Shown here piece after piece: positions 4,736 to 54,133 of a stretch of DNA of 64,000 nucleotides. The notes under the pieces are model-generated. The model saw nothing but the letters and a program-made list of their open reading frames with translations. It did no database searches and was not told the origin of the DNA. Both the position numbers and the translations under genes were made by a program. This DNA comes from Microcoleus sp. (lineage in GTDB: Bacteria > Cyanobacteriota > Cyanobacteriia > Cyanobacteriales > Microcoleaceae): the NCBI GenBank assembly GCA_042408215.1, contig JAYFMW010000017.1, forward strand, positions 608,001 to 672,000, given 5' to 3'. Numbering within the stretch: the stretch's first letter is position 1; the number at the start of each line of letters is the position of its first letter.

Positions 4736-7051
4736 CTAATCGCTAAACAGCTTTTCGCTCACCGGCGCGGTGACAAAAGGCAGTTTCGCTACAGGTTGCA
4801 GAACCGGCGGGGAAGCCGTCCGCTGCATTAAGCCGAGTTCGTAGAAGCCACCGCAGAGCAACAAGCGATCGCCCTCTTGCAAATCGGTACTTCCATCCGG
4901 CCACCGAGTAAACTTCCCTTCCCGCCGGAGCGCCCGCACCTGCACCCCGTACTGACTCAGCAACTCCACCTCCGACAGTTTTTGGCCCGCCCAAGGACTG
5001 TTTGCTGGCAATCTCAGCCACTGACAAGAACTGTCGCCGGGGGGCACGCCAATTTCCCCCTTCGCCAGCAACTCAAAACTCACGAGTTCTTCGGGATCTC
5101 CGACTACCAACACGCGATCGCCCGACTCCAAAGCTGTCTTACCATTGGGATAGTCAATTTCCTCGCCCTCTTTACGGACGATCGCCATAACGCTGACCCC
5201 TGTCAACTGTCGCAAGTTAGTTTCTTCCAGAGTCATGCTGGCGATCGGAGAACCCTCCGGTAGATTGTACCAATCGCTATTCATATCTCGAACAGCCACT
5301 TTCAAAGCCCGCGAAATAGCCGCATTTCCTCGCGCCGGCCGCAATTCCAGATAGCGGCTGCTGCGAATTTGCTGGACTTCCCGCCCAATAGCCATTGGCG
5401 ACAAACCCATACCAGCCAGCAAGTGAGATGATAGTTCTAAACTAGCCTCGAACTCAGGCTGAACGACTTCCCAAGCCCCCAGTTGGTAAAGCAATTCGAT
5501 ATCTTTATCTTGAGTCGCCCGCACGACAACATCTAAATCCGGGACTAATTCCAAAGCTCGCTTGAGACACAAGCGAGTGCTCATGGGATCGGGAAGGGCG
5601 ATCGCCATTGCTTTTGCTCGTTCCACCCCCGCAGCTTCCAATACGTGCCAACTGGCCGCATTACCATAAATATAGGGAATTCCCTGGGTTCTACACTCTT
5701 GAATTCTGCTTTCCGACTCGTCAATTACCACAACTGAACAGTTGCGACTTTGCAGCATTTTGACTAAATTTCGGCCAACTCGCCCGTAGCCACAAATCAC
5801 AATATGATTTTGCTCCGGCAAAGTTTCAGCTATTTCGACAGGTTGAGATGTTTCGTCAAAATAGCGCTGAATTGGCCCAAAGTTTTCCGCCCAATTCAAC
5901 AACTGCGGCACGCTTCTCAATACAAACGGTGTCAGCACCAGAGTAACTGCTGTTGTTCCCAAAATTAACAGGTAAACGTTTCGCGAAACCAGTCCTAATG
6001 CTTGACCGGAACTGGCGAGAACAAAGGAGAATTCTCCAATTTGAGCTAAGCCCAAACCTGCGATTAATGCTGTTTTTAGTGGATAGCCAAACAGTCGGAC
6101 GATCGGCGTTACGATCGAGAATTTGCCAACAAATACTAAAAATACCAGTCCCAGGATTAATTCTAAATGGTTCCAGAGAAACACCGGGTCAATTAACATT
6201 CCGATGGTGACAAAAAATAGGGATGCAAAAATATCTCGCAAAGGCTCAACATAAGTTAGAGTTTGGTCAGCGTATTCCACCTCCGAAATCATTAAACCCG
6301 CCACAAATGCGCCCATCTCGATGGAGAAACCCAAATATTCAGTCAGCAGCGCAATCCCCAAAGCCAAAACCACAACTCCCAGCAAGAACAGTTCCCGACT
6401 CTCTGTTCTAGCCAGATAGCGCAGCAACTGCGGTACAACCCAAATTCCCGCAACTACAGCACCCGCAGCAAATAAACTAATCCGCAGCAGGGCTAAGGCG
6501 ATCGTCATACCAATGGCTTCTACCGGCTGATTGAGGGCCGGCAAAACAGCTAGCATGAGCCCCAATGCTAAATCCTGAACTACCAATATTCCCAGCATCA
6601 CTTGACCGTGGGAAGTACCCCCTTCATTGCGTTCCATCAAGCACTTCAGTACCACTGCGGTGGAGGAAAGCGACAGAATTGCTCCTAAAAACACGCCTTG
6701 GGGCGGTGATTCTACCCAGCCCATAGCCAAGGAAGTGAAAGTAGTAATGGCGATCGTCAGGACAATTTGCAAGCCCCCACCGCCCAGACTAATTGCTTTC
6801 ACTTTCTGGAGTTCGGCGAAAGAAAATTCCACTCCCAGAGCAAATAACAGAAAAGCAACACCGAATTCAGCCAGGGTGTCTACCTGAATTAATTCTTTAA
6901 TCAGTCCCAAACCAGCAGGCCCAACCACCATCCCTCCCAGGAGATAGCCGAGAATTACCGGCTGTCGCAAAAGCGATGCGAACAGTCCTCCTGCTGCGGC
7001 AGCAGCGAGAACTAGAACTAAGTCAACGATCAGTCGGAAGTCTTCTTGCAC
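4736..7051 (-). CDS. CPA2-family cation:proton antiporter with TrkA-N and two TrkA-C (RCK) domains
   Basis: Multi-TM N-terminus (LSLSSTAVV, GEFSFVL), ICGYGRVG Rossmann motif. Probable GTG start at 7051 (VQEDFRLIVDLV). Confidence 0.92.
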   Translation of the reverse strand: MQEDFRLIVDLVLVLAAAAAGGLFASLLRQPVILGYLLGGMVVGPAGLGLIKELIQVDTLAEFGVAFLLFALGVEFSFAELQKVKAISLGGGGLQIVLTIAITTFTSLAMGWVESPPQGVFLGAILSLSSTAVVLKCLMERNEGGTSHGQVMLGILVVQDLALGLMLAVLPALNQPVEAIGMTIALALLRISLFAAGAVVAGIWVVPQLLRYLARTESRELFLLGVVVLALGIALLTEYLGFSIEMGAFVAGLMISEVEYADQTLTYVEPLRDIFASLFFVTIGMLIDPVFLWNHLELILGLVFLVFVGKFSIVTPIVRLFGYPLKTALIAGLGLAQIGEFSFVLASSGQALGLVSRNVYLLILGTTAVTLVLTPFVLRSVPQLLNWAENFGPIQRYFDETSQPVEIAETLPEQNHIVICGYGRVGRNLVKMLQSRNCSVVVIDESESRIQECRTQGIPYIYGNAASWHVLEAAGVERAKAMAIALPDPMSTRLCLKRALELVPDLDVVVRATQDKDIELLYQLGAWEVVQPEFEASLELSSHLLAGMGLSPMAIGREVQQIRSSRYLELRPARGNAAISRALKVAVRDMNSDWYNLPEGSPIASMTLEETNLRQLTGVSVMAIVRKEGEEIDYPNGKTALESGDRVLVVGDPEELVSFELLAKGEIGVPPGDSSCQWLRLPANSPWAGQKLSEVELLSQYGVQVRALRREGKFTRWPDGSTDLQEGDRLLLCGGFYELGLMQRTASPPVLQPVAKLPFVTAPVSEKLFSD

Positions 7052-7340
7052 AACTTTATGAAAAAAGTGTAAAGTTATATTATAGTGTTTAATGTGTGGA
7101 CTGTGTTTGGCGCGTTGACGATAGTTAAGGAGCCAGCGGAACTGCAACTCTCGAACCAGGTATTTTTTGATGGTCAAGAGTTCAAATCCTCACAAAAAGC
7201 TTAACCTCTGGCAAGTTTATCGAGGCATTGCAGCTTTATTGGTGGTGCTATTTCATCTGAACCAGATGAGCATAGAAATGTTAAAACAAGTAACTTTTTT
7301 TAATCTGTTTGAAGGGGCGTAAAATCAATAATCTCATAAA

Positions 7341-8550
7341 GAATCAGAAACCGGGTTTTTTCCCAAAATATTTAATTCCAATCTTTAATCTCGGTGAAAA
7401 ACCCGGTTTCTTTAATCCCCGCGCGAGAATCAGAAACCGGGTTTTTTACCAAAATATTTAATTCCAATCTTTAATCTCGGTGAAAAACCCGGTTTCTTTA
7501 ATCCCCGCGCGAGAATCAGAAACCGGGTTTTTTACCAACTATTTACTTCAAACCTTAGATTTCGCGGAAAAACCCGGTTTCTTTAATCCCCGCGCGAGAA
7601 TCAGAAACCAGGTTTTTTACCAAAATATTTAATTCCAATCTTTAATCTCGGTGAAAAACCCGGTTTCTTTAATCCCCGCGCGAGAATCAGAAACCGGATT
7701 TTTTACCAAAATATTTAATTCCAATCTTTAATCTCGGTGAAAAACCCGGTTTCTTTAATCCCCGCGCGAGAATCAGAAACCGGGTTTTTTACCAAATATT
7801 TGGTTCTCACCTTTAATCTCGGTGAAAAACCCGGTTTCTTTAATCCCCGCGCGAGAATCAGAAACCGGGTTTTTTACCAACTATTTACTTCAAACCTTAG
7901 ATTTCGCGGAAAAACCCGGTTTCTTTAATCCCCGCGCGAGAATCAGAAACCGGGTTTTTTCCCAAAATATTTAATTCCAATCTTTAATCTCGGTGAAAAA
8001 CCCGGTTTCTTTAATCCCCGCGCGAGAATCAGAAACCGGGTTTTTTCCCAAAATATTTAATTCCAATCTTTAATCTCGGTGAAAAACCCGGTTTCTTTAA
8101 TCCCCGCGCGAGAATCAGAAACCGGGTTTTTTACCAAATATTTGGTTCTCACCTTTAATCTCGGTGAAAAACCCGGTTTCTTTAATCCCCGCGCGAGAAT
8201 CAGAAACCGGGTTTTTTACCAAAATATTTAATTCCAATCTTTAATCTCGGTGAAAAACCCGGTTTCTTTAATCCCCGCGCCCAAACCAGAAACCGGGTTT
8301 TTTCCCAAATATTTGGTTCTCACCTTTAATCTCGGTGAAAAACCCGGTTTCTTTAATCCCCGCGCGAGAATCAGAAACCGGGTTTTTTACCAAAATATTT
8401 AATTCCAATCTTTAATCTCGGTGAAAAACCCGGTTTCTTTAATCCCCGCGCGAGAATCAGAAACCGGGTTTTTTACCAAAATATTTAATTCCAATCTTTA
8501 ATCTCGGTGAAAAACCCGGTTTCTTTAATCCCCGCGCGAGAATCAGAAAC
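7341..8550. repeat. Tandem array of about 14 copies of an ~85-86 bp palindromic unit (GAAACCGGGTTTTT-loop-AAAAACCCGGTTTC)
   Basis: Directly visible. The ~34 nt loop occurs in three recurring variants. Confidence 0.97.
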
Positions 8551-11500
8551 TACCCAGAAACCAGAGCTACGCGAAAATCGAAGAACGAGCCGCGGAGGCC
8601 CGCCGAAACCCTGCTACGAAGGGCACTGTGACAAAGGACTGCAACGTTGAGCCAGGAACCACCACGCAGCACACGGCGATCGTCTGTACCAGTTTCCCAA
8701 GAACTTCCGTCAGTCGGTGCGCCATTGTAGTTATCATGCCAGCGATCGCTACACCATTCCCAAACATTGCCGTGCATATCATAAAGTCCAAACGCATTCG
8801 GCGGAAAACTCCCCACATCCGTTGTTTGTTGGCGGTAAAGTCCCGATTGTGCAGAACCGTAGGGATAATTGCCGTCATAATTAACTAAATCCGGGGTAAT
8901 TGTTTCGCCAAAATGGAAAAGTGTTGACGTTCGGGCGCGACAAGCATATTCCCATTCCGCTTCCGCAGGTAAGCGATAAGTCTTGCCTGTTTTTTGAGAA
9001 AGTTTCTGGCAGAATTTCACAGCATCATCCCAGCTTACTTGTTCTACAGGACGTTTCGCGCCTTTAAACTCAGAAGGGTTATTTCCCATCACCGCTTCCC
9101 ACTGTTCTTGAGTAATGGGATATTTGCCCAGATAAAAAGGTTTAACAGTTACTTGGCGTAGCGGTTGTTCCGAACTAGATTCAGATGAACCCATCTGGAA
9201 TGTACCACCGGGAATATAAACCATTTCCAAATTCACCCAATTGCCCAATTTTTCGACTTTTTGACTGGCCTTTCCAGGTTGGCGACTAACTTCTTGCCCT
9301 CGATTGTTAACTGTAATAATCTCGAAATGGAATTCTTTAACCTTAGCTTCCTCTTCAGCGTCGCGTTGGCGTTCCTTTTCTAATTTCCGCTGACGTTCTT
9401 GTTCATCACGACGTTGCTGTTCCTCCTCTTCTAATTTCCGCTGACGTTCTTGTTCATCACGACGTTGCTGTTCCTCTTCTTCTAATTTCCGCTGACGTTC
9501 TTGTTCATCACGACGTTGCTGTTCCTCCTCTTCTAGTTTCCGCTGACGTTCTTGTTCAGCACGACGTTGCTGTTCCTCCTCTTCTAATCGCTGTTGGCGT
9601 TTTTTCTCATCCCAAACACCTTGAGCGACATCGCGGTTGTGTACGACTCCCGGCAAAATCGGATTAAGATTTAATGCTTGAGTGTAATCAGATATTGCCT
9701 GTTCGTAGGCTCCCAATTTGTAACAAGCATTGCCTCGATTGTTCCAAGCATCAGCATGATTGGGTTCTAGCCGCAAAACTTGAGTGTAATCTTCAATAGC
9801 AGCTCGATACTGCTCCAACTTAGCATAGGCAAATCCCCGATTGAAATTAGCATTTGCCAAATTAGCATTGAGTTGAAGGACTTGATTGAAATCAACAATC
9901 GCTGCTGCATATTTTTCCTCTTGGCAGCGCCTAATAGCTCGCTTGTAACAAGATTCAATCACACTCAGTTGGTGACTTTTGCCAACAGCAGCAAAACAGC
10001 TATTCAGTTTTCCAACATATTTCAAATCATCGATTGTCAAAACCGCATCCAAGGCATCTAGGATTTCCTTGTTTCCTGACGGTACCGACAAACCGCGCAA
10101 TTTTAGCCAAGCTTTTACCGACTCAAAAATTTGCGCTGTGGCCCAACGCTGATCGGGCAAATCCAGCAAACCTTCAGCTAAATCTAACTTAAGTTCAGGA
10201 ATCCATGCCGATTCAGATTCTGCAATCACATTATACAACATGTCGTAGAAATTAATCGCTATTTCTACTAATTGTTCCTGTTCCTCTGAGGGAATATCTT
10301 GCAGCAAATCAGGGAGTAACTGAGGCAATAGGGGCCGCTGCCGAACTTCCGGGGAGACGTGCAGGAAAAAGTATTCATCGGCCAGCAATCCGGCAATTAA
10401 ACAGTGACAAATACCGATAAACTGCTGAAATCTTTGATAATCTTTCTTGTGAATGCTGTAGGGACGTGGGATTTCTGCGGGATCGGTTCCAATTGCTTCG
10501 CACTTCCGTTCTTTCTCAATGATTTTTAGGTTGTGCAAGAAACTATTAACAGCTTCAGTGCCATAAAGTTCATCAAATTCTTCAACACTATTGCCCTCAG
10601 CAATGTAGGCAACCCGCTGAGCTTGCCACTGCAATGCCCTGTCTTTAGCGAAATCAAACAGTACCTCTCGCCAAGGTAGCATAGGAATAGGTGATTTGTA
10701 GCGGTAAGTTGCCCAATTTAAACCCCAATAACCAAAACTGAGGTTAAAAATATCGCCTTCGGCAGCGGATTCTAAAATTAATGTCGGCTCAGTTTTTAAG
10801 CCGCGAAACATTGATTGTGTTGCTGCTTGACTGTGAAAAAGCTTACTTGTCCAAGCACCTGATAAGAATTCCACAGGTCGTCCTTGGGTTAAATATTTTT
10901 CAAAGAATTGTTGCAGGTAAATTCCCAGAGTTTTTTCCATCTCTGGAAAGCCTTTTGCGGCATCATTTCCATCCCCAGAACGGTCAAATTGCAAAGTAGG
11001 TGGCGATAGGAAAACTCGCAGGGGAATAGGATTTTGAGCCGGATTAGATTTAACAATATCTTCGGCAATCAACCAAATGGGAGAGTTGCCTTGTCTTTTC
11101 TGTTCTTGAATGGCTTCAATGGCAGTTTTTCTGTCATAAATTCGGAGTTCGCGGGCCTGTTGAGCCTCGATGTTTTTTAGTTGTAATTGCAGTTCTTTTT
11201 GCTGTTCGATGCACCATTTTTGCAGGTGCGATCTCAAGATTTCTAATTCTATTTGGTGTTCGCGGCTGAGTTGATTTTCCTTGGCTTGAAATTCGCGGTT
11301 GAGTTTTGCAATTTGTTCTTGTAGTTGGCGGTTTAGCAGTCCTTCTTGGGTTTGGGATTCGCGGTTGAGTCTTGCTAATTCTGACTGTAAGGAGCGGTTT
11401 AGATGGCCTTCTTCGGCTTTAAATTCGAGGTTAGCTTGTCGTTGAAATTCTTGTAATACGAGTTCTTTTTTGCGGATTTCTTGCCAGCTTGCTTCGATTT

Positions 11501-11648
11501 CATTGTTGGTTTGTAGTGTTAAGTCTGTGTTTCTGGCTTGAGTTTCGGAAATGCGATCGGCATTATAAACTGTAGGCAGGAATGCAGCTTTTATAAGATT
11601 ACCCGCTTTGGCTCCCCATCCTTCGTTTCCTGGTAGTGCTTTTGTCAT
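8550..11648 (-). CDS. Coiled-coil + TPR + FGE-sulfatase (SUMF1/CLec-fold) domain protein, candidate DGR target
   Basis: TPRs (ANFNRGFAY, AWNNRGNAC), a 17-aa charged repeat, and FGE motifs [35 protein letters not shown]. Confidence 0.92.
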   Translation of the reverse strand: MTKALPGNEGWGAKAGNLIKAAFLPTVYNADRISETQARNTDLTLQTNNEIEASWQEIRKKELVLQEFQRQANLEFKAEEGHLNRSLQSELARLNRESQTQEGLLNRQLQEQIAKLNREFQAKENQLSREHQIELEILRSHLQKWCIEQQKELQLQLKNIEAQQARELRIYDRKTAIEAIQEQKRQGNSPIWLIAEDIVKSNPAQNPIPLRVFLSPPTLQFDRSGDGNDAAKGFPEMEKTLGIYLQQFFEKYLTQGRPVEFLSGAWTSKLFHSQAATQSMFRGLKTEPTLILESAAEGDIFNLSFGYWGLNWATYRYKSPIPMLPWREVLFDFAKDRALQWQAQRVAYIAEGNSVEEFDELYGTEAVNSFLHNLKIIEKERKCEAIGTDPAEIPRPYSIHKKDYQRFQQFIGICHCLIAGLLADEYFFLHVSPEVRQRPLLPQLLPDLLQDIPSEEQEQLVEIAINFYDMLYNVIAESESAWIPELKLDLAEGLLDLPDQRWATAQIFESVKAWLKLRGLSVPSGNKEILDALDAVLTIDDLKYVGKLNSCFAAVGKSHQLSVIESCYKRAIRRCQEEKYAAAIVDFNQVLQLNANLANANFNRGFAYAKLEQYRAAIEDYTQVLRLEPNHADAWNNRGNACYKLGAYEQAISDYTQALNLNPILPGVVHNRDVAQGVWDEKKRQQRLEEEEQQRRAEQERQRKLEEEEQQRRDEQERQRKLEEEEQQRRDEQERQRKLEEEEQQRRDEQERQRKLEKERQRDAEEEAKVKEFHFEIITVNNRGQEVSRQPGKASQKVEKLGNWVNLEMVYIPGGTFQMGSSESSSEQPLRQVTVKPFYLGKYPITQEQWEAVMGNNPSEFKGAKRPVEQVSWDDAVKFCQKLSQKTGKTYRLPAEAEWEYACRARTSTLFHFGETITPDLVNYDGNYPYGSAQSGLYRQQTTDVGSFPPNAFGLYDMHGNVWEWCSDRWHDNYNGAPTDGSSWETGTDDRRVLRGGSWLNVAVLCHSALRSRVSAGLRGSFFDFRVALVSG
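9370..9600 (-). repeat. In-frame 51-nt tandem repeat (KLEEEEQQRRDEQERQR, about 4 copies)
   Basis: Visible in both DNA and protein. Confidence 0.9.
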
Positions 11649-12030: not shown

Positions 12031-12816
12031 CTAATAAGTCCCGCCGCGATCGGTAAATAACATATGTGCCACACCTTCTAAATCAGTATCGGCTCGACCG
12101 ACTTCTTTACCATTTTCTCTATAAATGTAACCTGATTCTACTCGTCCTACAAAAGAATCATCAGCCCACCGACAAATCTGTCCGTTTTTACTAAGATATC
12201 GGATATGGTCAGATGTTGAGTTGTAAAAATCTCGCCCATGCACATGACAGACTATTTGTGTGGTTCCGTCGAGTTTGTGTAGGTGCAGGTCGCCAGTGCG
12301 ATCGATAGGAATGAATGGGCCGTCTCCAGAACTAGAATGGGAGGAGTTAAGGATGTGTGGCGCTGCATTTGTGTGGTTTTCGTGGTGATTTGTTGCGGAT
12401 GCAAACCCGGTTGCGGAATTGTGCTGGTGAGTATCTTGGTGGTAAGTGTCGTGGCTGTGAGTCCAATCTGTTTGGGGATGTTGCTGGTTGAAATTGTGCG
12501 ACGTATCAGTCCAATCGCTGTGAGTTGCTGATGTTTCTGTTGCGAATCCGTGTTCGGGATTTTGCCACTGATTATCTGCGTTGTGAGTGTCGTGGCTGTG
12601 AGTCCAGTCGCTTTGGGGATGTTGTTGGTTGAAATTGTGGGAATTATCGGCCTAATCGCTGTGGGTGATGTCTGATGTTGCTGGGTGGTTGAGGTTGTGG
12701 TCGTTGAGGTGTAAGTTGTTGTGGGAATGATCCAGATTGTTTGGTTGATGGGCGTCGAGACCGAGGGATTGCATGCAATCGTCTAACGGGGAGTTGCTGT
12801 CAGAGGTGTGATTCAT
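12031..12816 (-). pseudogene. His/Asn/Asp-rich low-complexity protein with one internal TAG
   Basis: ATG at 12816 is in frame with the stop at 12031. One TAG at 12652-12654 sits where the internal duplicate copy has TGG (HSD*AD vs HSDWTD). Confidence 0.75.
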
Positions 12817-13198: not shown

Positions 13199-14599
13199 AT
13201 GCAACTGACATATAAATACCGCCTCAAACCCACAAAAGCCCAACTAATAACCATCGCAACCCACCTAGAACTCTGTCCTAGGCAGTACAACTATCGACTG
13301 GGTGAAAGATTTAGATGGTGGAAATCAACAAGAACGCCTATTAACGCCTGTCCTTTAACTGCTTCTATAGTTCCTGTCGAGGAAATCTATCAAAACATTC
13401 CCTTGCTCAGAACGCAAACTAGGAATGGCAAAAAAAAGATGATTCAGGCAATCCTTTAACTAGGAAAGGTGATATTTTCTCAAATATTGAAGGTGGTTAT
13501 GTGCAATGGCAAACCATACAGTTAGCCGACCTGAATAAAACTAAAAAGCTATTTCCTGAATACAAACTCTTGGATTCCCAGGTTTTACAAGATGTAGTTA
13601 ACAGAGTAGAAACTTCCTTTTCAAACTTTACTACACCTGACAAAAACGGGAATCGTAGAGGTAAACCCAAGTTCAAAGGTTTTCACTACTACAATTTTTT
13701 TACTTATCCTCAATTAGATAATTTAGATATTATCAAGGATGTGCCAAACAGGATTTGTATTGACCTTGCAAAAATAGGTCAAGTGCCGAGGGTTTTCCAT
13801 CGCCCAATACCGACAGGATTTAAGGTTAAGACGGGAACAGTTATCAGAGAAGCAGATAGGTGGCATATCTCCCTAACGCTAGAAGATAAAACAGTTCCCA
13901 TAACGGTTGCAGAAATTCAACCGACCTCAGAAAACAGTCTCGGTATTGATTTGGGAATCACCAATTATGTCTATATGTCCAATGGTGAAAGAATTGAAAA
14001 CCCTAGATTCTTGAGGAAGTCTGCTGAGAAATTAGCAAGACTTCAAGCGAAACTAGCTAAAAGAGATAGGGGTTCTAAACGTTGGCAGATTATTAAAGGC
14101 AAGATTTCTAAGCTTCACCAGTTTCTAGCCAGAGCGAGAGTTGATTTTCAGTTTAAAACGGCACAGGAGCTATTTGGCAAGTGTGATGTTTTGATTGTTG
14201 AAGATTTGAGTATCAAGAATCTAACCAGACGTGCCAAGGTCAAGACCGACATTGAGAATGGCAACTTAGTTTATTTGCCAAATGGTCAAGCGGCTAAGAG
14301 TGGCTTGAATAAATCAATGCTTGATGCTGATAATGGTCAATTCGCTACTGTTCTCAAATACGTTGCTTGGAAGTTAGGAAAGAGCGTTTTATTTGTTGAC
14401 CCCAAGGGGACTTCTCAACACTGTTGGAATTGCCTCAATAAAGTACCGAAAGAGTTATCGGAGCGATGGCATTCTTGTCAATGTGGGGAGTCCTTAGATA
14501 GAGATGAAAATTCAGCCAAACTTATAAAGAAGATTGGTCTAAATTACGAAAGTGGCGAGGGAACTTCGTCACTCAAAAAAGCCCTTGCAAAAAGGGAAA
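13199..14599 (+). pseudogene. tnpB: TnpB RNA-guided endonuclease, -1 frameshift at an A8 run; last codons lie beyond the intron (17079-17110)
   Basis: HTH start MQLTYKYRLKPT; RuvC motifs GIDLG, VEDL, DRDEN; zinc ribbon CWNC...CQC; frame change at 13430-13437. Confidence 0.88.
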
Positions 14600-17078
14600 G
14601 TGCGATTCGTTTAACCTAAAGTAAACTGAAAAGCTTTACGAGACGGTTAGCCCAGTTGATGAGACTGGTGATAACTGATTACATTTGTAGGTGAGACTCC
14701 GTGAGTCAAGTCCTACCCTCCAAGTGCAGGAGTGAAAGCATAGCCCCTAGTATACTGGGTAGCAACCATTAGGCTAAAGCGGGGTTAAAAGGTAGAACTA
14801 CTAGAAGCTGAATCTGGTAACTATCGAGCCAGAGTCCATGCGTAGCGAAAGCAGTGATGTATCTGAACCATCGTAATTTGCAATGGTGTAATAGCTGAAT
14901 CAGGATAAATCCGTTGAGAAACACGGTAAAGACTGATTAACACGCCCGCCAAAAGGCAAGGATAGGGCATAAGCGGTTTTTCCTCCGACTTATAAGCACC
15001 GCCCAAAAAACCCGGTGGATAGCATCGCGCTAAAGACTTAATCAATATGTAATCGGAACGAAGTAACTCTCTTAAATCTCTGGATAGGTCGATATTCAGT
15101 AAGTAGCTAACGAATGATGTAAGGGAGAGGGATTGTATCAAAAGCGAATGCCTCACTGTAATGGTGTGGATATGCTGACAGGTACACGGTAATTCCAATG
15201 GAGTAGAACAAGTAGCAATGAATATATCTAAAACGCTGAACAATCAGACGGTGGAGTGGAAAGACATCAAATGGCGAAAGTTAGAAAAGGTGGCTTTTAA
15301 GTTGCAAAAGCGCATATTCCAAGCGAGTGAACGTGGTGATGTTAAAGCAGTTCGCAAACTTCAGAAGACCCTGATTAGGTCTTGGTCTGCAAAATGTATT
15401 GCGGTGCGTAGGGTAACACAAGATAACCAAGGCAAAAATACGGCTGGTGTGGATGGCGTGAAATCCCTGACACAAAAGCAACGTACTAACCTTGTTGGTA
15501 AGTTAAAGTTGGAAGGCAAGGCAAAACCCACTCGTAGGGTTAATATTCCTAAACCTGGAACAACCGAAACTAGACCACTAGGAATCCCTACAATAAGCGA
15601 CCGCGCATTGCAGGCGCTATGTAAGATGGCGTTAGAACCAGAGTGGGAGGCAAAGTTTGAACCTAACTCTTATGGTTTTAGACCAGGGCGTTCCTGTCAC
15701 GATGCGATTGTGGCAATTCATACCAATATCAACCAAAAAGCCAAATATGTGCTGGATGCTGATATTGCTAAATGCTTTGATCGTATAGACCATAAAGTAT
15801 TACTCTCCAAAATATATACATACCCCACTCTAAGCCGTCAACTTAAGACATGGCTCAAAGCAGGGTACTGTGTGCAGGGTGAATTATTCCCTACTAATGA
15901 AGGTACACCACAGGGCGGGGTTATTTCTCCGCTACTGGCAAATATTGCCTTACACGGTATGGAAGAAAGAGTTAAACAGTATGCAGAAACCCTGATAATG
16001 CTCTCTCCTGGTGGATTCAAACTAAACAAAAACCAGAGAAAAGACACACTCAGCTTAATCCGCTACCCTGATGACTTCGCGATCATCATCCATGAGGATT
16101 TAAGCGTAGTCAAGAAATGTCAGGAGATAATTGCAGAATGGTTATGTGATATGGGATTGGAATTAAAACCAAGTAAGACAAAATTAACCCACACCCTCAT
16201 TGAGATTGATGGTAATGTTGGGTTTGAGTTCTTAGGATTCCATGTACAGCAGCATGAAGTAGGAAACTACCGTAGTGCCAATACATCACAGGGAACACCA
16301 CTAGGTTTTAAAACACTAATCACACCCTCAAATGCCAAGGTTAAAACCCATCTAGCCAAGATTGCTGAAGTAATAGATTCCCACAAAACCGCCCCACAAG
16401 CTGCTTTAATCAGCAAACTGAATCCAATAATCAGGGGATGGTCAAACTATTATTCAACACAGGTAAGCAAGGATACCTTCTCAAAGGTTGATATGCTGAC
16501 ATGGCAAAAGTTAAGAGCCTGGGCAAGAAAGAGAGGGGAAGGGGACATCAATAAAGACAAATACTGGCGAACAGTAGGCGATAGAAATTGGTGTTTCAGT
16601 ACCGAGGATGGATTAGAACTACTCACCCATGCAAGTACGCCAATCGTAAGGCATATCAAGGTCAAGGGAGAGGCTAGTCCGTTTAATGGAGACTGGGTTT
16701 ACTGGAATAAGCGAAGAGGCGAAAGCCCGGATACCCCAAGCAGAGTATCAAAATTAATCAAGAAACAAAAGGGTATCTGTTCTCACTGCGGTTTGTATTT
16801 TACCAGTACAGACATTGTAGAAGTTGACCATATTAAACCGACCTCGTTAGGTGGAAAAGACACCTATGACAACCTACAACTTTTGCATAAACACTGCCAC
16901 GACACAAAGACAGCAACAGACGGGTCAATGCGCTCCGAAGGAAGTGTTAAAACCTGATAGTTGGTCTTGAATCGTACCTATAACAAAGATGGAATTATCA
17001 AGGAGCGGAATGATGCGAAAGTATCACGTTCCGTTCTGAAGGAGAGGTAGGAGTGGTAACGCTCCTATCGACTCTAAC
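14600..17078 (+). mobile_element. Group II intron (IIB/chloroplast-like class)
   Basis: 5' GTGCG at 14600; domain V GAGCGGAATGATGCGAAAGTATCACGTTCCGTTC (17003-17036); domain VI hairpin ending CTCTAAC; candidate EBS1 loop TTTTTCCT (14977-14984) complementary to exon end GGGAAA. Confidence 0.93.
15218..16957 (+). CDS. ltrA: Group II intron-encoded reverse transcriptase/maturase with C-terminal HNH endonuclease
   Basis: TAGVDG, RPLGIP, PQGGVISPLLANI, RYPDDF (YADD position), NPIIRGWSNYY, C..C...EVDHI...NLQLLHKHCH. Confidence 0.95.
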   Translation: MNISKTLNNQTVEWKDIKWRKLEKVAFKLQKRIFQASERGDVKAVRKLQKTLIRSWSAKCIAVRRVTQDNQGKNTAGVDGVKSLTQKQRTNLVGKLKLEGKAKPTRRVNIPKPGTTETRPLGIPTISDRALQALCKMALEPEWEAKFEPNSYGFRPGRSCHDAIVAIHTNINQKAKYVLDADIAKCFDRIDHKVLLSKIYTYPTLSRQLKTWLKAGYCVQGELFPTNEGTPQGGVISPLLANIALHGMEERVKQYAETLIMLSPGGFKLNKNQRKDTLSLIRYPDDFAIIIHEDLSVVKKCQEIIAEWLCDMGLELKPSKTKLTHTLIEIDGNVGFEFLGFHVQQHEVGNYRSANTSQGTPLGFKTLITPSNAKVKTHLAKIAEVIDSHKTAPQAALISKLNPIIRGWSNYYSTQVSKDTFSKVDMLTWQKLRAWARKRGEGDINKDKYWRTVGDRNWCFSTEDGLELLTHASTPIVRHIKVKGEASPFNGDWVYWNKRRGESPDTPSRVSKLIKKQKGICSHCGLYFTSTDIVEVDHIKPTSLGGKDTYDNLQLLHKHCHDTKTATDGSMRSEGSVKT

Positions 17079-49208: not shown

Positions 49209-51029
49209 ATGTACCCAGAAAGATTTTGGAGAAAACTACAAGGCGAAACAGTCAACAACGAATACTACCTCCAAGAATACCTAGGATGTGGAGCCTATGG
49301 AGCCGTATACAAAGCAGATCAAGTAATCATAGACCAATTCATCAGAGAAATAGCAATCAAACTAATCGCCTTAGAAGAAGATGAAACCAAAGCCAAAAAA
49401 CAACTAAACGAACTAATAGCAGCAGCCAACTTGCTACACGAAAACATCATCCGTAGCTACACAGTGGGCTTGTGCGAAATCAAAGGAGACGAATATTTAT
49501 TCATCGTCATGGAAATCGCCGCAATCACCCTAGAAAAAAAACTAAAAACCGGAAAACTCTCCATAACAGAAGCCAGAGAAATAGTCAAAGCCACAGCAGC
49601 AGTATTACACTACCTACACAATTTAAATCCGCGAAAAGTCCACAGAGACATCAAACCAGCCAACCTGCTATATGCAGATAACAAATGGAAAGTATCAGAC
49701 TTAGGACTGCTGCGAGAAATCGGCACCAACTCACTGAGAACCCAAGATAGGAGAGGAACACCATTTTATGCTCCCCCAGAATCCTACAAGGGAGTAGTAG
49801 GAACAGCATCGGATATCTGGTCACTGGGAATCATGACAGCAGAAATCCTGACAGGAAGTCTACCATTCACAGGAAAGACAGACGAAGAAGTAATGAAAAA
49901 AACCCTAGACGAACAGCCGGAAATAGACTGGTCAAAAATACCAGAACCATTCACGGCCATAGTCAGAGGATGCTTGGAAAAAGAGCGAGAAAATAGATGG
50001 ACAGTAGAACAAGTATTGACAGCATTAGAACTAAAACAGGACTTACACACTCCGACCAAAGAAACCGGGTTTTTTACTGAATCTGTTGATAACAACGAAG
50101 AATCTGATAAAAACCCGGTTTCTGAGCCCATCCTAGCCCCGGCCTTTATTAGTCGAATTGATCAATTGCTACGATCAATATCCACACCAGCCCCAAAACC
50201 AACAAAACAAACACAAACCTTTCAATTCCAAGTAATCACAGTCAACGCCAGCGGACAAATCATCAAAACAGAACAGCGACAAGCCGAATACTTTAGTGAA
50301 AACCTAGGGCGCGGAGTCAGCTTAGAAATGGTACAGATTCCCGGCGGCACATTTATGATGGGTTCCCCCGACAATGAAGAAGGTAGAAGTAATGACGAAA
50401 GTCCGCAGCATCGAGTCACAGTACCGACTTTTTTTGCAGGGAAATACGCCATCACCCAAGCACAGTGGGAAGCTGTCATGGGAAACAACCCATCGGATTT
50501 CAAAGGTGAAAAACGTCCTGTGGAAAATGTATCGTGGGATGATGCTGTCGAATTCTGTAAGAAACTCTCGCAAACAACCAGGAAAACATATCGCTTGCTG
50601 AGTGAAGCGGAATGGGAATACGCTTGTCGCGCCGGAACTACAACACCTTTCTATTTTGGGGAAACCATTACCCCAGAATTAGTTAACTACGACGGAAACC
50701 ACCCCTACGCCAAGGCCTCCAAAGGACTTTACCGCAAAGAAACAACAGATGTGGGGAGTTTTCCACCTAATGCGTTTGGATTGTACGATATGCACGGCAA
50801 TGTTTGGGAATGGTGCAGCGATAAATGGCACGATAATTATAGTGGCGCACCAACTGATGGAAGTTCTTGGGAAACTGGTGGATCTGAATACCGGGTGCAG
50901 CGTGGTGGTTCCTGGAGCACCTATGCGGTCGATTGCCGCAGTGCCTATTGTCTCTACTGCTCGGTGGACTACAGGTTGAGGAACAGGGGTTTTCGCGTAG
51001 CGGTTGCGTCGGTTTCTTCCTTGTCCTAG
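49209..51029 (+). CDS. Ser/Thr protein kinase fused to an FGE-sulfatase (CLec-fold) domain, candidate DGR target
   Basis: [38 protein letters not shown] motifs [22 protein letters not shown]...GFRV. Confidence 0.95.
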
Positions 51030-51143
51030 TTTTCCCCGCGAGGACTCTTCGTTTTCTCTGCTCTTTTGCTCTCTTGCGCTTTGCGCTCTTAATTCTTTTC
51101 CCTTTCTGCCGCTTGCGGCTCGATTTTTTTTTCGACTGTGCCC

Positions 51144-51709: not shown

Positions 51710-52942
51710 ATGTTCAACCTAGAACTTGACTGGGATCTACCAGCTAAAATCAAAGCCAAAAACACAAAACACATCTTGCGAGTGCGAATTCGTCCCCAAT
51801 CCGGTGGCCCCGGTTTACCTCTGCGAATCGCCATCGCCCTGGATACCAGCCAATCAATGGGAGGAGAAAATCTTCAGCGCGCTAAGGAAGCTTGTCGGGC
51901 TGTTGTGGCTCAATTGCGCGATCGCGATCGGCTTTCCTTAGCCGGCTTCTCCACCAGTGTAACACCATTGCTGCAATCTTTACCCGGTGGTGCCGCCGCC
52001 CTTCAACCCGCCAATACCGCCATTTCCCGACTGACAGCGGAAGGTGTTACCCGCACCGATTTAGCCTTAGATTGGATAGTCAACGCCCTACCCCCAGAAG
52101 CCGGAGTCGCGCGGGTGGGAATCTTGATTACTGACGGTCATGCTACCACATCCCAAGGAAGGATTTTAGATGATACGGGGGTTTTGATCGATAAATCCCA
52201 ACAACTAGCCAACCTAGGTATAATTCTCAACACCGTCGGATTGGGAAATGCTAATAATTTTAATACAGCATTATTGACAGATTTAAGCGACAAAGGGCGA
52301 GGCTCATTTATATTTGCAGATACCCCAGCCAGCCTGGAACCCCAACTCCAAAAAAGACTCACAGAATGTCAGGCGATCGCCACCGAAAACACCGTCATCC
52401 AGCTAATACCTAGCAACGGCGTTATCATCAAAGGCTTTTGTCGTTACCGCCCCGAATATTTGCCCCTAGAAGAAACAGCGAAGAATCAATTAACCATCGG
52501 TGCGATCGCCGCCAATACCCCCACGGATTTATTAATCGAACTCGAAATTCCCCTAGGAGGATTTGACGAACCTACAGGTAACAAAGACGTAATTTCTGTA
52601 GAGCTCACAGCCAAGGGAATGACCAATCCCGTGAGAGCAAAAGCTGCCATTAATTATACAACAAGTCCTACTGAAGCGCAAAAAGACAACAAGGAAATCA
52701 AGAACGACTATTGCTGCTGGATGATTAACCTCACAAACAACGAATTGAGCCGCACCGACGACGCCAATCGGCAAAAAGAACTACTGGAAGAATCCCGATA
52801 TAATGCTGAAAAAGCCGGAAAGATTGATATAGTTAATCAAATCGACCAGCAGCTAGATGACCTGGAAAAAAGCGGCAAATTAGACCCCAACAGAACCACC
52901 AAATTGCTGAGAGATTCACGAGACTTAGGAGGTAAAGAATGA
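51710..52942 (+). CDS. von Willebrand factor A (vWA) domain protein
   Basis: MIDAS DTSQS...T...ITDG, TVGLG, LL..LS..G.G. Confidence 0.92.
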   Translation: MFNLELDWDLPAKIKAKNTKHILRVRIRPQSGGPGLPLRIAIALDTSQSMGGENLQRAKEACRAVVAQLRDRDRLSLAGFSTSVTPLLQSLPGGAAALQPANTAISRLTAEGVTRTDLALDWIVNALPPEAGVARVGILITDGHATTSQGRILDDTGVLIDKSQQLANLGIILNTVGLGNANNFNTALLTDLSDKGRGSFIFADTPASLEPQLQKRLTECQAIATENTVIQLIPSNGVIIKGFCRYRPEYLPLEETAKNQLTIGAIAANTPTDLLIELEIPLGGFDEPTGNKDVISVELTAKGMTNPVRAKAAINYTTSPTEAQKDNKEIKNDYCCWMINLTNNELSRTDDANRQKELLEESRYNAEKAGKIDIVNQIDQQLDDLEKSGKLDPNRTTKLLRDSRDLGGKE

Positions 52943-53343
52943 GTAGTGGCTTTGGGTCCGATCCAATTTATCAAGGACGACTGACACCAGACAATGCTAA
53001 ACTATTGGTACGCAATAGCAGCAGCGCCAACCAGAAATTTCCCCTGAATCAAATCCGAGCAATTATCGGTCGCAGCGATGATGCTCCCATGAGTATAGAA
53101 GACATCGATTTAACTGAATGCAAAATTGACAATAAATCTGCCATCTCTCGCCGCCATGCGGTGATTGAATGGGTAGAAGGTAAACTGCAAATTATTGATT
53201 TAGACAGTACAAACGGTACTTTTGTCAATGGGAAAAAACTCCTTACCACAGCACCGAGGCAACCGTCAAGTCCTGAAATTCTCAAAAGTGGTGATATCAT
53301 AAAACTGGGCAATATTGAACTAGAGGTAATAGCTGATGGATAA
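52939..53343 (+). CDS. FHA domain protein
   Basis: IIGR, ISRRHA, DLDSTNGTFVNG, L..GD.IKLG; ATGA overlap with the vWA gene. Confidence 0.95.
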   Translation: MSSGFGSDPIYQGRLTPDNAKLLVRNSSSANQKFPLNQIRAIIGRSDDAPMSIEDIDLTECKIDNKSAISRRHAVIEWVEGKLQIIDLDSTNGTFVNGKKLLTTAPRQPSSPEILKSGDIIKLGNIELEVIADG

Positions 53344-54133
53344 TTCACAAGCAAAACCGGAATTGACCTTTGCTGGCAAAACTGACTGTGGCAAAGTTCG
53401 CCCCCACAATGAAGACAATTATCTGCTAGAATCCTGGCCGGAAACATCTACTGTACTGGCCGTAGTAGCCGATGGCATGGGGGGACACAGGGGAGGAGAA
53501 GTCGCAGCCAAAATCGCTGTAGATACCTTTAGAGAGCTGCTAAAAACACGTTTACCTGAGACATCTCAAGAGCGATATAATCTATTGCTAAAATGTTTCT
53601 ACGATGCCGACAAAGCCATCCAAGAAGCCGCCTGCGAAAACTACAAATTATTTGGGATGGGAACAACTATAATAGCGGCGATTGTATCTCCCACAGAATA
53701 CATTCATCTCTATGCGGGCGACTGTCGTTTGTATCATTTTACCCCAGGAAATAAACCCTACATTACAGCGGATCATTCAGTGGTGCAGGTATTGCTAGAA
53801 TTGGGGCGGATTACGGAGGAAGATATTCCAACTCATCCGATGCGTTCGGTGGTAAACTCTTGTTTGGGCGGCAAAGAAAAAAGTCAATTTTCGGTTGACC
53901 CAAAATGGGATAGTGAAGACTTACCTGTGGTGCGAAAATGGTCTGCGGGTGATGTTTTGTTGTTGTGTAGCGATGGGTTGAATGGAGAGGTTAGTAATCA
54001 AGAATTGACAAGTCTTGTGGAGGAGTTTGGAGACTCACCGGAAAGGCTAACTGAAGAATGTGTGAACAAAGCTTTGGAGCAAGGCGGTAATGATAATATC
54101 ACGGTTATTGCTATTGTGAATTTTGGTAGATAA
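53336..54133 (+). CDS. PP2C-family Ser/Thr phosphatase
   Basis: RPHNED, VADGMGG, MGTT, AGDCR, DHS, LCSDGL, GGNDNIT; overlaps the FHA gene end. Confidence 0.95.
   Translation: MDNSQAKPELTFAGKTDCGKVRPHNEDNYLLESWPETSTVLAVVADGMGGHRGGEVAAKIAVDTFRELLKTRLPETSQERYNLLLKCFYDADKAIQEAACENYKLFGMGTTIIAAIVSPTEYIHLYAGDCRLYHFTPGNKPYITADHSVVQVLLELGRITEEDIPTHPMRSVVNSCLGGKEKSQFSVDPKWDSEDLPVVRKWSAGDVLLLCSDGLNGEVSNQELTSLVEEFGDSPERLTEECVNKALEQGGNDNITVIAIVNFGR

Follow-up and report, generated by a model that had tools for sequence, protein, structure and literature searches.

The stretch of DNA analysed here, referred to as the window, comprises 64,000 nucleotides of a Microcoleus genome (G000; assembly GCA_042408215.1, contig JAYFMW010000017.1, positions 608,001 to 672,000; 7.36 Mb in 30 contigs, 99.98% complete) and harbours two genes whose products end in an FGE/CLec domain. 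Gene A (49209..51029, plus strand) encodes a deduced protein of 606 amino acid residues, with a Hanks-type Ser/Thr kinase domain (PF00069, residues 21-271) followed by a C-terminal FGE-sulfatase/CLec domain (PF03781, residues 373-598). Motif checks together with Pfam revealed the glycine loop, the VAIK lysine, the HRD catalytic loop, a DFG-like motif and DxWSLG, an intact set by which the predicted product is assigned to the Hanks-type Ser/Thr kinases; a hydropathy scan found no transmembrane segment (peak hydropathy 1.23). The product aligns with TvpA (PDB 2Y3C), a surface protein of a DGR-bearing genome, with an E value of 7e-27 and over a span that includes the variable region (VR). Gene B (8550..11648, minus strand, 1032 residues) consists of an N-terminal part, TPR and a C-terminal FGE/CLec domain; its residues 1-560 gave no Pfam match, and their nearest Atlas clusters (0.91) are unnamed and mostly from Bacteroidota. 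In both genes the VR is 3'-terminal in the CLec-fold domain, with PF03781 reaching residue 598 of 606 in A and 1028 of 1032 in B.

The kinase-CLec linker of gene A contains an in-frame copy of an abundant palindromic repeat of about 85 bp (50058..50130, plus strand; 626 repeat-core matches genome-wide), and read depth spikes over positions 50004-50137, which span this copy, in four of four runs. The kinase half is 98% identical to that of a G044 gene ending in a CLec domain of another template family, and the paralogues of gene A terminate in different domains. Among relatives and paralogues, loci L122, L123, L124, L127, L128 and L129 join near-identical kinase domains either to CLec modules of another template family or to a domain that we take, from its sequence, to be GUN4-like. 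Such near-identical kinase domains with differing C-termini point to module swapping at the linker. Orthologues of the kinase occur in at least 7 of the 79 genomes of the genus, when the best five candidates per genome are scored.

Directly downstream of gene A lie genes for a vWA protein, an FHA protein and a PP2C phosphatase (51710..54133, plus strand; Pfam and synteny), a conserved neighbourhood that marks the gene A locus in G008, G009 and G051. Their position behind the kinase makes a phospho-switch possible. The cluster may resemble the TerY-P defence triad of vWA, PP2C and kinase; PADLOC gave merely generic matches for the FHA, PP2C and kinase genes and no match for the vWA protein.

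Adenine-centred differences and two template alleles

The initial annotation had proposed that genes A and B differ mostly at third codon positions upstream of the RGGSW motif and that this pattern flips behind it, and the counts bear this out: 8, 6 and 25 differences at codon positions 1, 2 and 3 in the 201 nt upstream of RGGSW, against 12, 14 and 6 in the 66 nt after GGTGGTTCCTGG (RGGSW; Fisher p=1.4e-4 vs upstream). All eight codon pairs listed there were found in register, and the two genes are unlike at 21 of the 26 codons that separate RGGSW from FR.

Motif scans of congeners and metagenomes yielded candidate templates (TR), namely AAC-rich non-coding copies adjoining avd and RT, so that every template compared with the G000 tails comes from another genome or a metagenome. 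The true cis pairs L096, L101, L098 and L060 show 0 non-A differences, hence the templates are genuine. The tail of gene A matches the TR of metagenome contig L093, which also encodes an RT and an Avd above cut-off, with differences at 10 of 26 A and 3 of 85 non-A sites (p=1.8e-5). Over the full 161 nt of homology (50892-51052) the counts are 11/30 A and 5/131 non-A (p=3.8e-6). The variable region of gene A (50892..51052, plus strand), ascribed by this alignment to the L093/L096 template allele, thus takes in the stop codon and the homing signal; the homology continues past the end of the span 50890-51029 proposed earlier, to about 51052. This allele is known from metagenome contigs and was found in 0 of the 79 congener genomes. 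The tail of gene B (variable region 8565..8675, minus strand) fits instead the L101/L104 allele, with differences from the TR of L104 at 21 of 27 A and 8 of 84 non-A sites (p=3e-11). A single template for both tails was tried and rejected: gene A differs from the template of B at 17-18 non-A sites, and gene B from that of A at 15-17. The codon pairs already recognised as unfit for one template are explained by two template alleles, one per tail, which have unlike 3' halves and share one homing signal. In both tails, mismatches are concentrated at template adenines, as had been anticipated for DGR adenine mutagenesis from AAC/AAT codons.

Two of the three non-A differences in the gene A tail recur in tails of other species and may represent template alleles. 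Since non-A differences have been reported in 23% of DGRs (Wu et al. 2018, PMC5758913, in the portion available) and here recur across species, they provide no clean clock.

The putative homing signal (IMH) of gene A is intact (51036..51050, plus strand), position 51043 being G in targets and C in templates. As assigned from this sequence pattern, the G form follows 15 distinct target ends and the C form (IMH*) occurs in 4 templates, a G/C pattern like the slight IMH/IMH* dissimilarity described in the accessible text of PMC5758913. Genes A, C and D (see below for the latter two) retain the exact IMH, which gene B does not carry. Downstream of the IMH of gene A lies a short GC hairpin with a 4-bp stem (51108..51119, plus strand), whose folding signal is weak (fold of 51030-51140, z -1.9, an equally good fold in 9 of 200 shuffles); at that place, active targets form a 6-bp hairpin (6-bp stems in three other targets). 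According to the part of PMC5758913 at hand, a GC-rich hairpin downstream of the IMH is not universal (34%).

Divergence at first and second codon positions is frequent in ligand-binding loops, and the tails could on that ground be ascribed to ordinary diversifying selection or to gene conversion among FGE paralogues, with no DGR involved. The differences track the adenines of non-coding templates beside avd/RT, including third positions and sequence beyond the stop codon, and the G-C distinction between IMH and IMH* is kept; the template alignments refute this account, to which we attach scarcely any probability.

Two further paralogues and one relic were found elsewhere in G000. Gene C (C30:688255-689977, at 689861, plus strand) is a frameshifted kinase-FGE pseudogene whose tip, by template comparison, is chimeric, with its 5' part of the template type of A and its 3' part of that of D. 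Gene D (C30:699284-701260, at 699400, minus strand) encodes another kinase-FGE protein with a nearly pristine tip, differing from the L101 template at 14 of 26 A and 1 of 85 non-A sites, a non-A count as low as those of targets in the DGR-bearing G009 (0, 0 and 1). Its near-pristine state implies that the cassette was lost very recently or is present but unassembled. The relic (C28:148824-149060, minus strand) consists of a third-family target tail, a hairpin and the first 18 codons of avd (C28:148824-148877), cut by a repeat, and is 84% identical over 235 nt to a target-avd junction of G089; it derives from a further DGR.

The cassette site in G000 and its relatives

The adenine pattern stood, and close relatives possess the machinery, but G000 itself yielded no template, DGR RT or Avd. 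Its four RVT_1 matches are only 24-27% identical to DGR RT; profile NF033474 found no Avd; and BLASTN, an invariant-column scan and a motif search found no template (best non-target match, 37 of 55 invariant columns). Matches to the RT DNA, to the template flank, to the RNA segment after the template and to the cis target B' were likewise absent from the genome, and the contig ends hold no unit part beyond short repeats. L004, a 369-aa frame tried as a DGR RT, proved to be a frameshifted RT with an HNH-like end and 24% identity to DGR RT.

The window itself holds no DGR cassette, in agreement with the initial annotation. The sole RT in it (15218-16957) is a group II intron RT/maturase that passes the TIGR04416 cut-off. 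Lying 3.6 kb from gene B, it might be imagined to provide the activity; we consider this probability negligible, as the protein has RVT_N, GIIM and HNH domains, scores above the group II cut-off, is 26% identical to DGR RT, and would find neither template nor Avd to use. It is accompanied, between the M23 gene and gene B, by an IS605-type tnpB (13501-14619). A segment at 12250-12816 (minus strand) is a homologue (74%) of the small gene located before the cis target in relatives that have a DGR; it has no 100-aa open frame and is probably interrupted.

Synteny locates the place where a cassette would have stood. Between gene B and the Na+/H+ exchanger gene (4736..7177, minus strand; Pfam and synteny), the downstream flank of the empty site, G000 has an array of 14 copies of an 86-bp palindromic repeat (7340..8550; Tandem Repeats Finder, synteny with L101, L132, L164 and L235), whereas congeners hold B'-TR-avd-RT there. 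The single contig of G051 shows the order M23 peptidase, small gene, B-like target, template, avd, RT, Na+/H+ exchanger. In G051, G009, G050 and G014 the stretch from the M23 gene to the antiporter contains a cassette or its remains, while the site is empty in G000 and G044: the DGR RT stands directly before the exchanger in G009 and G051, G014 keeps there a 25-codon remnant of the RT (its last codons), and in G050 the M23 gene is followed by target, avd and RT. The cassette of G044 is located at purF. The purF site of G000 (locus C) was considered as a second site that had lost its cassette; a 71-bp match to G044 begins there at the RT stop codon, and gain in G044 fits this equally. In G000 the sites by the antiporter and by purF are both contiguous and empty. 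Across the genus, 17 of 40 antiporter-upstream stretches contain an FGE gene and 2 of 40 an RT or remnant, several of these stretches ending at contig ends, and gene order varies among G008, G009, G014, G044 and G051. Deletion between repeats and replacement with a cassette-less haplotype would account equally well for the loss.

As the assembly consists of 30 contigs, the cassette is probably rather than certainly absent, and a DGR carried by a plasmid that was missed, or by DNA outside the assembly, could still be rewriting A (and D) in trans. The exact IMH kept by A, C and D and the nearly pristine tip of D would fit such an active element, as would the related DGRs on cyanobacterial plasmids, where only distant DGRs were found (six records, RT matches at 66-70%). 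Against it stand the 99.98% completeness, the two contiguous, empty sites, the contig ends with no more of the unit than short repeats, the two different templates that A and D require, and the viral contigs, in which a scan found no match to template or IMH*; nor can the idea apply to gene B, which has no IMH. We therefore regard an active DGR as improbable. Among 22 read runs the best contained 0.47 of the words, and the contigs from four of them mix other strains and paralogues.

Fate of the two tips and decay of DGRs in the genus

Gene A is a former trans target. At the place ahead of vWA-FHA(-PP2C), the gene in G000 and G008 has a tip of the same template type as A, the one in G009 has a tip of the type of D, and the one in G051 belongs to a third family. 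The probable G009 orthologue differs from the distant template resident in that genome at 13 of 27 A and 0 non-A sites, with no cassette beside it; its tip is connected to a contig with an A-like kinase through 128 nt of exact overlap, in a part common to paralogues. This gene is probably the orthologue of A and, by the same comparison, a remote target in a DGR-bearing congener. Gene A and its G008 orthologue are 93.5% identical and differ at 18 of 27 A sites and 5 of 84 other sites, which indicates that rewriting continued after the split in at least one line; their FGE scaffolds differ by 20 synonymous codons of 193, approximately the background rate (antiporter pS 0.13).

Gene B has a different history. 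It was first considered as the cis target itself, a role rejected because the tree of the N-terminal part makes it a paralogue of the cis target B': six B' copies form a clade with 100/100 support, apart from B, and the two genes stand in tandem in G008, G009 and G014. The tip of B occurs in 5 of the 79 genomes (G000, G009, G014, G044 and G052), two of which carry the matching template, avd and an intact RT. The IMH behind it is kept in G052 and lost in the other four; in G000 the repeat array begins directly after the stop codon, and the tail there is identical to the template at 28 of 48 positions. B alleles of four genomes differ at 0-2 of 27 A sites, against 13-20 of 27 among five fresh targets. 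With its homing signal lost and its allele fixed in five species, gene B is not a current target. The initial annotation had made both genes trans targets of a DGR elsewhere in the genome: gene A is indeed of the trans-targeted kind, but no such DGR was found, and B has lost its homing signal.

Of the changes among the five B alleles, 8 are synonymous and 2 nonsynonymous (binomial p=7e-4); G008 was kept out of this comparison, since a contig end truncates its B copy and its FGE rows are those of B'. This excess suggests purifying selection on a once hypervariable loop, and the tip now seems to be protected by selection. The FGE scaffold of B has a pS of 0.02-0.06 among the five genomes; the only two flanking genes that served as background give 0.10-0.27 (exchanger) and 0.18-0.43 (M23 gene). 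Four pairs were tested, with p values of 2e-5 to 7e-4. Towards the four other species, synonymous divergence of the scaffold is 0.04-0.05, compared with 0.20-0.25 for the adjacent antiporter. Gene B being far less diverged than its neighbours, spread of its tip across species is likely on these divergence values.

As an alternative, diversification could have taken place in other strains, from which homologous recombination brought in the finished tips; the direct line of G000 would then not have had a DGR acting on A. For gene B ready-made import is likely, as far as synonymous divergence can tell, and the module swapping noted above, in which the kinase half of A recurs with a CLec of another family and paralogues end in other domains, adds to the case. 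The scaffold of A, however, diverges from G008 at about the background rate, and three IMH-bearing targets and the avd relic in G000 suggest resident cassettes. As a general account we hold import to be unlikely, though with appreciable weight, and it would not alter our conclusion that both tips were made by a DGR and no longer change.

Loss of the machinery is not peculiar to G000. A DGR RT (64-100% identity) was found in 10 of 79 genomes of the genus and an Avd above cut-off also in 10 of 79; Avd matches below cut-off in 11 further genomes and two genomes with 32%-identity RT matches only were left uncounted. The exact IMH motif occurs in 19 of 79 genomes (reversed control, 0/79), and all 13 further IMH sites that were fetched stand behind an FGE gene. 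Seventeen of the 19 IMH-bearing genomes have no RT, and one of the two that do has an internal stop in it. G042 (6 contigs, 100% complete) contains such targets with no RT or Avd above cut-off. Various states of decay were found: a stop codon in the RT (G051), a template without avd/RT (G001), an RT remnant (G014), and avd with 45 codons of RT (G081). In G050 the template has collapsed into the target, which runs into the template's downstream RNA segment (L241:1380-1560); the junction indicates deletion of the template by target-template recombination, with avd and RT intact. These genus counts include related genomes that are not independent of each other, and many of the congener assemblies are in pieces, with breaks at target/template repeats. 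On this genomic survey, DGR loss appears as the rule in the genus. Further tips are common to species, namely L248/L250 (G065/G073), L251/L252 (G075/G077), L086/L090 (G066/G086), L215/L249 (G050/G070) and L055/L219/L220/L247 (G010/G017/G042/G064). Frozen alleles would thus be common in the genus.

Interpretation and comparison with known systems

Taken together, we conclude with good confidence that the 3' ends of A and B are DGR retrohoming products of one TR-avd-RT lineage, whose machinery was lost and whose tips are frozen. RT and Avd would have made cDNA from template RNA, inserting random bases wherever the template has A, and this cDNA would have replaced the 3' end of any FGE/CLec gene, near or remote, that had the shared signal. 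Lying about 42 kb from the cassette site, gene A would have been a remote target, rewritten in the G000 or G008 line after their split, and, as it retains its signal, could be rewritten again should a cassette return. Gene B, a tandem paralogue of the cis target, would have had its tip fixed earlier, lost its signal and come under purifying selection. The cassette itself may have been deleted between repeats, or the haplotype carrying it may have been replaced by an allelic one with no cassette. The kinase is most likely a cytosolic sensor, the CLec tip of which would bind one fixed ligand and gate phosphorylation, to be read by the neighbouring FHA protein and reversed by the PP2C phosphatase.

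The view of the kinase as a diversifying receptor was not sustained, the machinery being missing from the assembly: unless a cassette went unassembled, gene A encodes a once diversified, now static receptor, and its reading shifts from "diversifying receptor kinase" to "formerly diversified, now static". A broader proposal, to which we give slightly less than even credence, is that the DGR of this genus is a transient, borrowed mutator: cassettes with varying template alleles would pass through, rewrite all signal-bearing genes (even the last residues and the stop codon) and then vanish, while losing the signal would lock the winning tips, which recombination would carry from one species to another. 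The tip of B would then be a receptor swept across five species, its spread pointing to a common ligand, and gene A a primed target awaiting the next cassette. As 17 of the 19 genomes with a homing signal have no RT, a survey that searches for DGRs by their RT overlooks most of their traces in this genus. The shared tip of gene B offers a fixed bait for the ligand of cyanobacterial CLec sensors.

Our literature search found no study of DGR loss in the genus; one paper with both terms names the genus in another context, and Tables S1 and S3 of PMC7517822 may list such genomes. The DGR literature compared also covers PMC8144416 and bioRxiv 10.64898/2026.02.18.706561, each in its accessible portion. 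Like Treponema denticola TvpA (2Y3C) and the CLec1/FGE-sulfatase category 'b' in the available part of Wu et al. (2018, PMC5758913), genes A and B have an FGE-type CLec with the VR in the last ~40 residues, and they share with the systems described there an IMH slightly unlike IMH* and an AAC-rich template; unlike TvpA, gene A encodes a predicted cytosolic kinase with no machinery. The incomplete loci, candidate remote targets and short repeats around loci recall the clade-5 DGRs of multicellular bacteria, in particular those of Thiohalocapsa PB-PSB1, as presented in the accessible sections of Dore et al. (2024, PMC10907252). In PB-PSB1, however, cassettes elsewhere in the genome diversify incomplete loci in nature, whereas G000 has no cassette.

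The closest parallels are in the accessible text of Vallota-Eastman et al. (2020, PMC7517822), which describes cyanobacterial CLec (FGE) C-termini grafted to Ser/Thr kinase or TPR, with the VR at the 3' end and 76 remote targets; genes A and B, a kinase and a TPR protein with CLec and a 3'-terminal VR, are of this kind. The same source describes a degraded cassette in Anabaena sp. 90 and residual TR-VR homology in the paralogue all3226. It proposes for the CLec tip a role in gating the kinase or in substrate selection, and suggests that DGR components are removed once a variant is selected, an idea for which the shared tip of gene B provides a test case. Kinase-CLec remote targets and the idea of cassette removal were thus already known from that text. 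The genomes treated in that accessible text still have a DGR RT, unlike G000, which has none. What is added here, beyond the portion of that work available, is an empty site mapped by synteny, a history of two template alleles, and a frozen allele of gene B shared across five species together with a test of the selection acting on it.
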